From positions 1-13,276 of IMG/VR virus record IMGVR_UViG_2703718848_000021: a DNA stretch of 13,276 nucleotides. One strand, written 5' to 3'. This document shows, one piece after another, positions 1 through 13,276 of the stretch. The position numbers and the translations under genes are program-made. Positions within the stretch are counted from its first letter, which is position 1. Each line of letters starts with the position of its first letter. Below the pieces are notes generated by a model that worked only from the letters and a program-made list of their open reading frames with translations, had not been told where the DNA came from and made no database searches. This stretch comes from a virus (taxonomy: Duplodnaviria > Heunggongvirae > Uroviricota > Caudoviricetes).

Positions 1-204
1 CTAGATCAACGTAGTGATGATCTCGGCTATGTGTTCAAGTGGGATTGGTGCCAAAATAACACCATTTGCTGCCAGTAGTGGAACCGCTACATAATTATAA
101 ATGAGAACGCCAAAGGTGATTGAAGCAATCGCAGTAGTTTTCCATTTAATTTTTACATCTTCGCCATCTTCTTTAATGAAGGCTTTTTTAGTTAGCTCTA
201 TCAT
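1..204 (-). CDS. hypothetical membrane protein, C-terminally truncated by the window edge
   Basis: Minus-strand ORF open to position 1. ATG at 202-204 has an AAGGA SD (213-217) 8 nt upstream; the track start at 246 is TTG with ATG at 241-243 and no SD. Charged K/E-rich N-terminus followed by hydrophobic segments (TTAIASITFGVLIYNYVAVPLLAANGVILAPIPL). True start ambiguous, see 188..307. Confidence 0.4.
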   Translation of the reverse strand: MIELTKKAFIKEDGEDVKIKWKTTAIASITFGVLIYNYVAVPLLAANGVILAPIPLEHIAEIITTLI

Positions 205-307
205 CTTTTTTATCCTTATCTTTTTTATTATCGGTTGCTTCATCAATTTTTTTAGTTATGAAGTATTGAAGACTTTGTACTAGCACAACTTTTAACATAC
301 TAAACAT
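188..307 (-). CDS. small ORF (39 aa), or the N-terminal segment of the downstream membrane protein gene
   Basis: Hand-translated: ATG at 305-307 with SD formed by the TAAGGA that includes the stop of the upstream 106-aa gene (313-320). Translation MFSMLKVVLVQSLQYFITKKIDEATDNKKDKDKKDDRAN, stop at 188-190. Not in the ORF track (short). Confidence 0.25.
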   Translation of the reverse strand: MFSMLKVVLVQSLQYFITKKIDEATDNKKDKDKKDDRAN

Positions 308-317
308 ATACACATCC

Positions 318-2144
<1,827 letters not shown>

Positions 2145-2181
2145 AAAAGAAAGGGAAGCCAACAATGGTTTCCCTTTTTTA
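2145..2181. terminator. bidirectional rho-independent terminator shared by the lysozyme gene and the tail operon
   Basis: Stem 2150-2157 (aaagggaa) pairs with 2170-2177 (ttcccttt), extendable by cc/gg in the loop; A-run 2141-2148 upstream and T-run 2175-2180 downstream give a U-tract on either strand. Sits between the two convergent stop codons (2142-2144 and 2182-2184). Confidence 0.7.
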
Positions 2182-2427
2182 TTATTTTGATACTACATTT
2201 AGAACACGCTTTAAATCTGACTTGATATCTGTTAATTCATTATGAATTCTCATCAACTCATTTACATCATCTTCTAACATTTCTGTACGTGCTTCTAATG
2301 CTTCTAACTTCACTTCTAACTGCTTGATACGACTTTCTAGCTGTACCGCTTCTCGTCGTTTAATTACGGCATAACGCACCATAAAAGTAAACAACGTAGC
2401 GAATATACCGACTAATGTCAGATCCAT
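2182..2427 (-). CDS. small membrane-anchored coiled-coil protein (function unknown; possible lysis or fibre accessory protein)
   Basis: Track ORF starts with GTG at 2433; ATG at 2425-2427 has an AAGGA SD 7 nt upstream. N-terminal hydrophobic helix (LTLVGIFATLFTFMV) followed by RYAVIKRR and a heptad-rich charged region. Last gene before the terminator. Confidence 0.5.
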   Translation of the reverse strand: MDLTLVGIFATLFTFMVRYAVIKRREAVQLESRIKQLEVKLEALEARTEMLEDDVNELMRIHNELTDIKSDLKRVLNVVSK

Positions 2428-2459
2428 ACACACATCCTTATTTAATTTATTATAATAAT

Positions 2460-2481
2460 ATGCGGTAAAATATCACCGCAT
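2460..2481 (-). promoter_or_regulatory. stem-loop immediately downstream of the J-like gene
   Basis: atgcggt (2460-2466) pairs with accgcat (2475-2481), 8-nt loop; 7 nt after the J-like stop (2488-2490) on the minus strand, followed by an A/U-rich stretch and the SD of the next gene. Confidence 0.3.
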
Positions 2482-2487
2482 TATTAT

Positions 2488-9820
<7,333 letters not shown>

Positions 9821-9833
9821 CGAACCAGCCTGA

Positions 9834-10931
<1,098 letters not shown>

Positions 10932-10955
10932 TTGATTAATTCCTTATAGTGAAAC

Positions 10956-10972
10956 GGGGGAATAGATCCCCC
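10956..10972 (-). promoter_or_regulatory. GC-rich stem-loop downstream of the major tail gene (possible attenuator)
   Basis: ggggga (10956-10961) pairs with tccccc (10967-10972), 5-nt loop; minus strand reads GGGGGATCTATTCCCCC then GTTTCAC, 19 nt after the major tail stop and upstream of the G-gene SD. Confidence 0.3.
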
Positions 10973-10991
10973 TAAGTAAAAGTATTTATAA

Positions 10992-11444
10992 TTATTCTAC
11001 TAGACCAGTAGCTATTGGACCACCATCTACAGCGAGAACGAATTCACGGGTAACTACTGCATCTTTATCGCCACCAGTGGTAGAAGAAGAAATAAATGCA
11101 TTATAGATAGCATAATAACCTTCTGTGTGCGTACCGTCGGTGTAATAAGTGATCTTGTACTGAGCACGTTTTTGATCTTCGGCTAGTTGCAAGAGCTTGA
11201 TATGGGTAAGATTGTCCAGGAGATAGTTCACGGTTAGTGGAATATCACCTACAGATTTAGTGCCAAGGATTTTTCGATTATACACACTGTTAAATGTCAC
11301 AACGTCCACCACGACGCTTTCTGCACCCATAGTTGGGAATGCACCTAGTTCTGGGATAATTTCAAAATCAGTTGCAGGAGTGGTAGAACCTGCGGTATAT
11401 GTGCCAACTTCAACGGTAACGTTGGCCCCGTGCAAATATATCAA
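10992..11444 (-). CDS. major tail (tube) protein
   Basis: 150-aa ORF immediately upstream of the G/GT pair; size fits small siphovirus tail tube proteins. Call is mainly by synteny. Start unclear: the track start is TTG, 13 nt from the SD; an ATG with ideal SD spacing sits at 11449-11451 in the +1 frame. Confidence 0.65.
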   Translation of the reverse strand: MIYLHGANVTVEVGTYTAGSTTPATDFEIIPELGAFPTMGAESVVVDVVTFNSVYNRKILGTKSVGDIPLTVNYLLDNLTHIKLLQLAEDQKRAQYKITYYTDGTHTEGYYAIYNAFISSSTTGGDKDAVVTREFVLAVDGGPIATGLVE

Positions 11445-11487
11445 ATGCCATTTTTATTTCCTTATATAGATTTAAGTTATTAAGTAA

Positions 11488-11514
11488 ACGGGTACGTATA
11501 CATCATGTACCCGT
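11488..11514 (-). promoter_or_regulatory. stem-loop between the tail fibre and major tail genes
   Basis: acgggtac (11488-11495) pairs with gtacccgt (11507-11514), 11-nt loop; 10 nt after the tail fibre stop on the minus strand, followed by TTTACTT. Confidence 0.3.
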
Positions 11515-11524
11515 GTATATTTAT

Positions 11525-13276
<1,752 letters not shown>

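Follow-up and report, generated by a model that had tools for sequence, protein, structure and literature searches.

Can a tail tube gene be expressed when its Shine-Dalgarno (SD) sequence and ATG lie in one reading frame and its coding sequence lies in another? This question is raised by IMG/VR record IMGVR_UViG_2703718848_000021, of which we analysed positions 1 to 13,276 as a single stretch of DNA (13,276 nucleotides, hereafter the window). The original prediction, made from the letters alone, was that a major tail gene opens without an ATG after a stop at 11454-11456, that a TTG is its first possible start, and that a well-spaced SD-ATG at 11449-11451 belongs to another frame and yields only a 13-codon ORF. 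All of these coordinates hold, on the minus strand, and the ORF reads MAFDIFARGQRYR before its terminal TGA at 11412-11410 (Table 1).

A tail tube gene in a conserved tail module

The product encoded by the frame is the siphophage tail tube, or major tail protein, as judged by profile matches, gene order and a predicted model. PHROG 158 ('major tail protein') matches the ORF in a profile search with E = 8e-20, and Pfam PF08813 (Phage_tail_3) reaches 24.0 bits, slightly below its cut-off of 24.2. Precomputed PF08813 matches are present on the homologues P0002, P0003, P0005 and P0007-P0011. The predicted model has the tail-tube fold, with low confidence for its first six residues; a profile search of PDB sequences returned no solved homologue of the tube protein. 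Searching deposited phage genomes at the DNA level with the tube region likewise gave no match, and there is thus no cultured relative for comparison. As blueprint we used an intact relative from Citrobacter freundii, which encodes a terminase of 638 aa, a portal of 506 aa, a protease-capsid protein of 633 aa, a fibre of 949 aa, a tube protein of 155 aa, a tape-measure protein of 816 aa and a tail tip of 1,140 aa. The window shares its gene order of fibre, tube, 99-aa ORF, 124-aa ORF and tape measure.

The neighbours of the tube gene have features of their own. The 99-aa ORF ends in GAA AAA AAA TAA (10632-10643, minus strand), placing a slippery heptamer, A AAA AAA at 10641-10635, directly before its stop; the 124-aa ORF (10225-10599) lies in the -1 frame, and its homology begins right after that stop. 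This heptamer is the canonical G/GT programmed -1 frameshift of tail chaperones. On the other side, the large upstream fibre protein, which carries pyocin-knob and S74 peptidase domains, has an N-terminal segment of ~135 aa that is ~30% identical to the tube protein. Tube-like fibre N-termini recur outside the window, at 16552-16956 of locus L001, at 6876-7290 of L015 and in L112-L120, and the fibre appears to be a fusion of tube domain and fibre conserved throughout the family. The space between the fibre gene and the tube gene contains a hairpin, which lies ~25-30 nt upstream of the SD. Equivalent hairpins with other stem sequences occupy the same place in Citrobacter L015 (~9720-9750), L017 and L040 (~13360-13385), the stems across genera being ACGGGTAC/GTACCCGT, GTGGGTAG/CTACCCAC and ACGGGTAA/TTACCCGT. 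The element could serve as an attenuator, a terminator, or an mRNA-processing or -stabilising structure.

Table 1. Features of the tube start region, other tail-gene lesions and start haplotypes of the shifted copies. Coordinates are positions in the window.
Feature	Position	Strand	Basis, remarks or carriers
Residual tail-tube (major tail protein) ORF	10992..11444	minus	150 codons counted from TTG1
TTG1, first start-type codon of the tube frame	11444-11442	minus	
TTG2, second in-frame TTG	11435-11433	minus	
Both TTG codons, taken as starts by annotation pipelines	11433..11444	minus	150-aa and 147-aa calls
Ancestral ATG start codon, now out of the tube frame	11449..11451	minus	intact-start alleles and 64/68 relatives
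Shine-Dalgarno AAGGA within conserved TATAAGGAAATAAAA context	11459..11463	minus	anti-SD duplex -6.2 kcal/mol
Remnant leader ORF	11410..11451	minus	13 codons from ATG; TGA at 11412-11410
Inserted base, codon 7/8 boundary	11430	minus	C on coding strand, G on plus strand
Substitution hotspot, 9 bases 3' of insert (Gly-Ala-Asn codons)	11421..11429	minus	shifted alleles only
Conserved terminator-like stem-loop between fibre and tube genes	11488..11514	minus	
Tape-measure lesion, extra A	9869..9872	minus	A4 here, A3 in intact copies
Tail-tip (J-like, Phage_Tail_Tip/fn3) gene, three frames	2488..6194	minus	tblastn against the 1140-aa Citrobacter protein; indel map
Shifted haplotype GGG GCC AAC (G4 run)			window, L001, L002, L023-27, L029
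Shifted haplotype GGT GCT AAT			L004, L006
Shifted haplotype GGA GCC AAT			L003, L010, L012
Shifted haplotype GGT AGC GAT			L005, L007, L009, L030-39, L043-45

The original start and the inserted base

From 11460 to 11400, the minus strand reads AAGGAAAT AAAA ATG GCA TTT GAT ATA TTT GCA CGG GGC CAA CGT TAC CGT TGA. The tube frame itself, after its in-frame TAA at 11456-11454, reads K W H L I Y L H G A N V T V E V G... and continues to a TAA at 10994-10992. Spacing from the SD is 7 nt for the ATG, 14 nt for TTG1 and 23 nt for TTG2. Measured against the expectation of an SD 5-10 nt upstream of a start, TTG1 is too distant and TTG2 has no SD of its own, its duplex energy being -1.5 kcal/mol. The conserved codon pairs TTT-GAT and TTT-GCx give rise to the two TTGs, which intact alleles also contain, out of frame.

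Comparing the N-termini of homologous tube proteins, as the original prediction had proposed, identifies the ATG as the original start. Of the 68 family members found by scanning viral contigs, 64 have an ATG start behind the conserved SD context TATAAGGAnATAAAA and share the N-terminus M-A-x-D-I-F-(A/S)-G-A-N; the other four, with 'TTG' starts, belong exclusively to the shifted E. coli lineage. The same SD-ATG layout is found in the Citrobacter relative, in L017 and L040, and in every intact-start allele of E. coli and E. albertii, and the SD context is conserved out to Citrobacter and ~60 IMG/VR relatives. P0003, an E. coli protein with 95% identity and the nearest full-length homologue, begins MAFDIFAGANVTVEVG, and the ATG-frame codons of the window before the shift (MAFDIFA) match its N-terminus (MAFDIFAGANV) exactly. 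More distant relatives from Citrobacter, Pantoea and metagenomes, at 52-67% identity, begin MA(F/M)(D/N)I(F/Q)(A/S)GAN; across the tube family M1 and I5 are invariant and A2 is nearly so. Given the exact match to P0003 and the SD-ATG context of 64 of the 68 members, the pairing of this SD-ATG with the tube frame is not a product of chance, and alignment identifies the SD-ATG at 11451-11449 as the ancestral tube start. Homologues beginning at the equivalent TTG had been named as evidence that would speak against a displaced ATG. Such entries exist, as P0001 (MHGANV..., 147 aa), P0002 (MIYLHG..., 150 aa) and P0005 (MIFLHGSDV...), all from the same shifted lineage; they are one mutant allele called in two ways. 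Among the 68 family members in viral contigs, no independent homologue starts there.

We then located the change that separates the ATG from the tube frame by aligning the start region in 12 complete-genome E. coli copies and tallying start haplotypes at 36 loci. Intact-start alleles (L008/L013, L011/L014, L018, L019, the E. albertii-type L020-22, and L042) all read TTT GCT GGT GCT AAC; the DNA of seven of them was compared (L008, L011 and L018-L022). Shifted alleles all read TTT GCA C GGN and fall into four haplotypes, with TTT GCA C GGG GCC AAC in the window. A one-nucleotide insertion therefore sets the two apart, as the original prediction of a single-base indel had anticipated, and the residual ORF is the ancestral 152-codon gene without its first seven codons. 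The insertion was found in at least 16 independent assemblies or contigs. It is missing from all other relatives; the insertion is old and has a single mutational origin within the E. coli clade. The shifted P0005-type allele is widespread, being indexed in 211 blocks of the collection.

The original prediction had placed the extra base within a run of four Cs at 11426-11429. That run exists on the plus strand (G4 on the coding strand), but the extra base is the C at 11430 beside it. Dropping a base from the run, the proposed repair, gives MAFDIFARANV, with Arg where every aligned homologue has Gly, whereas deleting the C at 11430 restores MAFDIFAGANV, the family sequence. The homopolymer is confined to the haplotype of the window and is missing from the other three (GCAC-GGA, GCAC-GGT), which excludes a run-length error or slippage as the source of the shift. 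Because the haplotype of the window recurs in independent complete genomes and short-read assemblies, as well as in Logan/NCBI contigs, the insertion is a real inherited mutation; the site is identical in complete genomes H1, H2 and H3 and in six other contigs. We also rejected homopolymer slippage, phase variation and transcriptional slippage, the run being only four bases long and missing from three of the four shifted haplotypes.

The 13-codon leader, which had been considered as a short upstream ORF in its own right, is a remnant of the gene. Its codons 1-7 are the true tube N-terminus and the remainder is out-of-frame read-through. In sister haplotypes the leader frame stops after 8 or 9 codons (MAFDIFAR and MAFDIFARC, each followed by a stop) as against 13 in the window, so leader length is not conserved. 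We accordingly rejected an evolved regulatory upstream ORF. An in-frame 'TAATG' in some haplotypes was rejected as a start as well, since it opens a 25-codon ORF in the third frame and not the tube frame.

Decay of the host element

The window is identical to IMGVR_UViG_7000000498_000103 (L121) over the 5.6 kb compared, except for ~20 nt at its 3' edge; its last ~19 bases (~13258-13276) match neither L121 nor any E. coli copy. Copies of the element at 85% identity or more are present in only 20 of 5,426 complete E. coli genomes, where they adjoin bssR or sit in yegD. We mapped reading frames by tblastn against the Citrobacter blueprint in six E. coli copies and in L121, the contig of the window. 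In all seven, the terminase changes frame at aa 343/379 (in most also at ~aa 200), the portal changes frame at aa 196/197, and p106, a small head-module gene of ~106 aa, is frameshifted.

Tail genes of the window are broken too. The tape-measure gene, a single ORF of 800-816 aa in L003, L013, L018 and L015, is split in the window into ORFs 9834-10238 and 7835-9820. This lesion is polymorphic among otherwise identical P0005-type loci, which carry calls of either 800 aa or 134 + 661 aa. The tail-tip gene is in three pieces (ORFs 5949-6194, 4709-5911 and 2488-4761; 81, 400 and 757 aa). One cause of the split is an extra C at ~4732, also present in L002 and L003; a one-nucleotide deletion at ~5897 was not seen in the other copies compared. 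A search of E. coli for a family member that is still live led to L040, a ~75% relative, which is as degraded as the other copies. With terminase, portal and p106 disrupted in L121 and the six mapped copies, and tape measure and tip in the window, the host element is a dead, grounded prophage. Two complete-genome copies with an intact tube start carry the same broken head genes, from which we conclude that the tube insertion arose in an element already unable to package DNA.

Defence-type cargo adjoins the head genes. An SMODS nucleotidyltransferase and a SLATT gene lie upstream of the small terminase in L002, L004, L013 and L014, and an ATP-dependent nuclease lies beside the head genes in L001 (7330-9150). 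Such cargo may explain why hosts retain a dead prophage.

The tube gene has itself continued to decay. A second indel in L003 and L012 leaves the fragments P0012 and P0013, an internal double shift is present in P0006, and E. albertii-type P0021 alleles keep the ATG and are frameshifted near codon 60. Independent lesions of this kind show that these hosts can do without the gene. Within shifted clades, recent singletons comprise four non-synonymous (A35T, V44I, L75I, T17I) and no synonymous substitutions, a tiny sample that fits relaxed constraint.

Set against these signs of decay, the 150-codon frame is still open in most shifted copies, and its substitution pattern resembles that of a constrained gene. 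Among insertion-carrying copies, dS in the tube frame is 0.3-1.0 and dN/dS is ~0.1, values confounded by block recombination, whereas off-frame controls give a dN/dS of 1 or more. Over most of its length the element differs little from copy to copy (96-100% identity); high divergence and a mosaic structure are seen in the fibre cassette, in the adjacent tube gene and towards the C-terminus of the tip. Across L001-L004, L013 and L014, identity is 50-90% in these three regions and 95-100% in the head module, whose frameshifts the copies share. This concentration of diversity in the fibre, tube and tip modules indicates that host-range modules kept exchanging in an element unable to package DNA. 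L010 exemplifies the mosaicism, with an L003-like 5' end, an L008-like middle and an L011-like 3' end. As shifted and intact alleles visibly share blocks, we ascribe the low dN/dS to old allele blocks that recombination has reshuffled into mosaics; it probably reflects, for the most part, older history moved by recombination. We therefore set aside dN/dS among shifted alleles as an arbiter of function, a strong signal that is uninterpretable given the shared blocks. Exact-protein look-ups of P0005, ten of ten of which returned identical DNA, condition on no amino-acid change and are thus uninformative for comparing synonymous with non-synonymous substitution.

One local pattern would not be expected under plain drift. 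Of the 23 segregating sites in the first 130 nt of shifted alleles, 6 fall within the 9 nt after the insert (binomial p ~0.004). Most of these changes, spread over the four shifted haplotypes, are synonymous in the tube frame, and the seven intact-start alleles show no variation in this stretch. Together with the low dN/dS, the cluster leaves a small chance that some residual expression persists. The 9 nt also supply the 5' arm of an inverted repeat, a small one of the form GCCAAC(12 nt)GTTGGC.

A probable frameshift pseudogene and its rivals

The tube gene is probably a pseudogene, and its TTG start an artefact of annotation. The gene once started at the SD-ATG at 11451-11449 and encoded MAFDIFAGANVTVEVG.... 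Insertion of a single coding-strand C at 11430 then separated codon 7 (Ala) from codon 8 (Gly); by that time the head genes of the prophage were already broken. Ribosomes loading at the strong SD-ATG would now read 13 codons and stop, leaving the 150-codon frame without a proper initiation site, a pseudogene or at most a leaky gene. ORF callers report a 'TTG start' because TTG is the first start-type codon after the upstream stop. Three marks of a pseudogene are present, namely a frame disrupted relative to intact orthologues (one inserted nucleotide against seven intact-start alleles and outgroups), other essential genes disrupted, and independent additional tube lesions in sister copies. We infer that little or no tube protein is made. 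The lesion would then be of an ordinary kind, a frameshift pseudogene, and neither a sequencing error nor a special start mechanism.

Close parallels are the frameshift pseudogenes of cryptic E. coli prophages. As in those, a single-base indel disrupts an essential structural gene amid other broken genes, the lesion is inherited by many strains, and an ORF caller 'rescues' the frame at a downstream non-ATG codon. The tube gene differs from them in that its lesion lies seven codons from the start, so nearly the whole frame stays open, and in that it sits in a recombination hotspot beside the fibre cassette and therefore still looks strongly constrained (dN/dS ~0.1).

Expression of the shifted gene from TTG1 or TTG2, either directly or by re-initiation after the leader ORF, is unlikely. 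It would yield a tube protein with an altered N-terminus (MIYLHGAN... or MHGAN...), two to five residues shorter, and the original prediction had kept a genuine TTG start as an alternative. Every shifted allele has both TTGs, in frame, and the leader ends 8-13 codons in, a few to ~20 nt from TTG2. The low-confidence first six residues of the predicted model suggest that the N-terminus may tolerate change, and the low dN/dS and the mostly synonymous cluster around the new 5' end also speak for expression. Against these points stand the poor SD spacing of TTG1 and the lack of an SD at TTG2, and the origin of both TTGs as by-products of conserved codons that also occur in intact alleles. The invariant M1 and I5 and the near-invariant A2 would be lost in a protein needed in high copy number, and no independent homologue among the 68 family members has adopted either start. 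With tape measure, tip and head genes broken by frameshifts, the element of the window has nothing to assemble.

Corrective +1 frameshifting at GCA-CGG-N is very improbable indeed. Translation would start at the ATG and restore the exact wild-type MAFDIFAGANV..., with Ala-tRNA on GCA, a pause with the low-usage Arg codon CGG in the A site, and resumption at GGN (Gly). CGG occupies the A site in all shifted alleles; TTT-GCA-CGG is invariant among them and is followed by bases that do vary, for the most part synonymously in the +1 frame, but a single mutational origin would by itself leave GCA-CGG unvaried. As the sequence shows, a tRNA on GCA in the P site cannot pair anew with CAC. The stretch from the ATG to the site contains no SD-like stimulator, and the tube-start site shows no significant downstream structure (fold z = 0.58) and no match to an Rfam family. 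The shift is unneeded by 64 of the 68 relatives, its site is not conserved across independent lineages, and the element is otherwise dead. CGG is a low-usage codon in E. coli, only moderately rare, and efficiency at such +1 sites in this host would be far below the need of a major structural protein. To our knowledge there is no bacterial precedent of the Ty3 type, with a non-slipping P-site tRNA. Ty3 and glass sponges combine extremely rare shift codons with specialised tRNA pools, and retain the inserts in essential genes of live genomes; the tube gene, unlike these, has a moderately rare codon and lies in a dead element.

Known recoding systems nevertheless offer formal likenesses. GCA-CGG-N resembles the Ty3 site GCG-AGU-U and the sites of glass-sponge mitochondria, where insertion of C or T 5' of GGA creates a rare CGG or UGG shift codon that is overcome by a corrective +1 shift (PMC5009743). 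Shared with the tube gene are an Ala codon in the P site, an insert-created low-usage codon in the A site and a Gly codon, GGN, in the +1 frame. The Listeria phages A118, A500 and PSA use +1 frameshifting in their major tail protein genes (PMC5009743), the same class of gene and the same direction of shift. In these phages the ribosome shifts close to the 3' end, so that part of the product carries a C-terminal extension and is made beside the normal protein (PMC5009743), whereas a shift in the tube gene would be obligatory, at codon 8 and missing from 64 of 68 relatives. The lambda-type G/GT -1 frameshift is likewise recoding in a siphophage tail module. It has a slippery heptamer at the 3' end of an ORF, two products and conservation across relatives, none of which applies to the tube start.

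Weakest of all is a sequencing or assembly error in the C4/G4 homopolymer, to which a metagenome-derived contig with a four-base run abutting the site might seem prone; given the identical sequence in other genomes and contigs, the same insertion in three haplotypes without a run and the Arg that removing a run base would create, we regard it as practically untenable.

There is thus only a slender chance that the insert is not inactivating, with tube protein still made by a +1 shift at GCA-CGG-N or by leader-coupled TTG re-initiation. If it were not, the burst of mostly synonymous changes in the 9 nt 3' of the insert would represent compensatory tuning, and the head-dead element would be kept for a tail-only (tailocin-like) function, fitting its diversifying fibre and tip alleles. 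Were the +1 reading true, the site would be a bacterial counterpart of the Ty3 and glass-sponge type. Unless one of these low-probability recoding readings holds, the locus poses no new biological question.

If the tube gene is a pseudogene, the main value of the finding lies in annotation. The remnant is presented by RefSeq and other pipelines as an intact 'phage tail tube protein', with two different TTG starts, in hundreds of E. coli assemblies. In RefSeq copies H1-H19, the PGAP coding sequence of the shifted allele is 453 nt, 444 nt or a short fragment, named 'phage tail tube protein', 'phage tail protein' or 'hypothetical protein', and it is never flagged as a pseudogene. The split terminase and portal pieces in the same records are likewise annotated as separate proteins. 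The contig is itself listed as a viral genome in IMG/VR despite frameshifts in its terminase, portal, tape-measure, tip and tube genes. Once the ancestral SD-ATG and the inserted base are recognised, the gene could be marked as a pseudogene and its host element as a grounded prophage. The lesson that extends beyond this locus is that, where allele blocks recombine, a low dN/dS is no proof of function.
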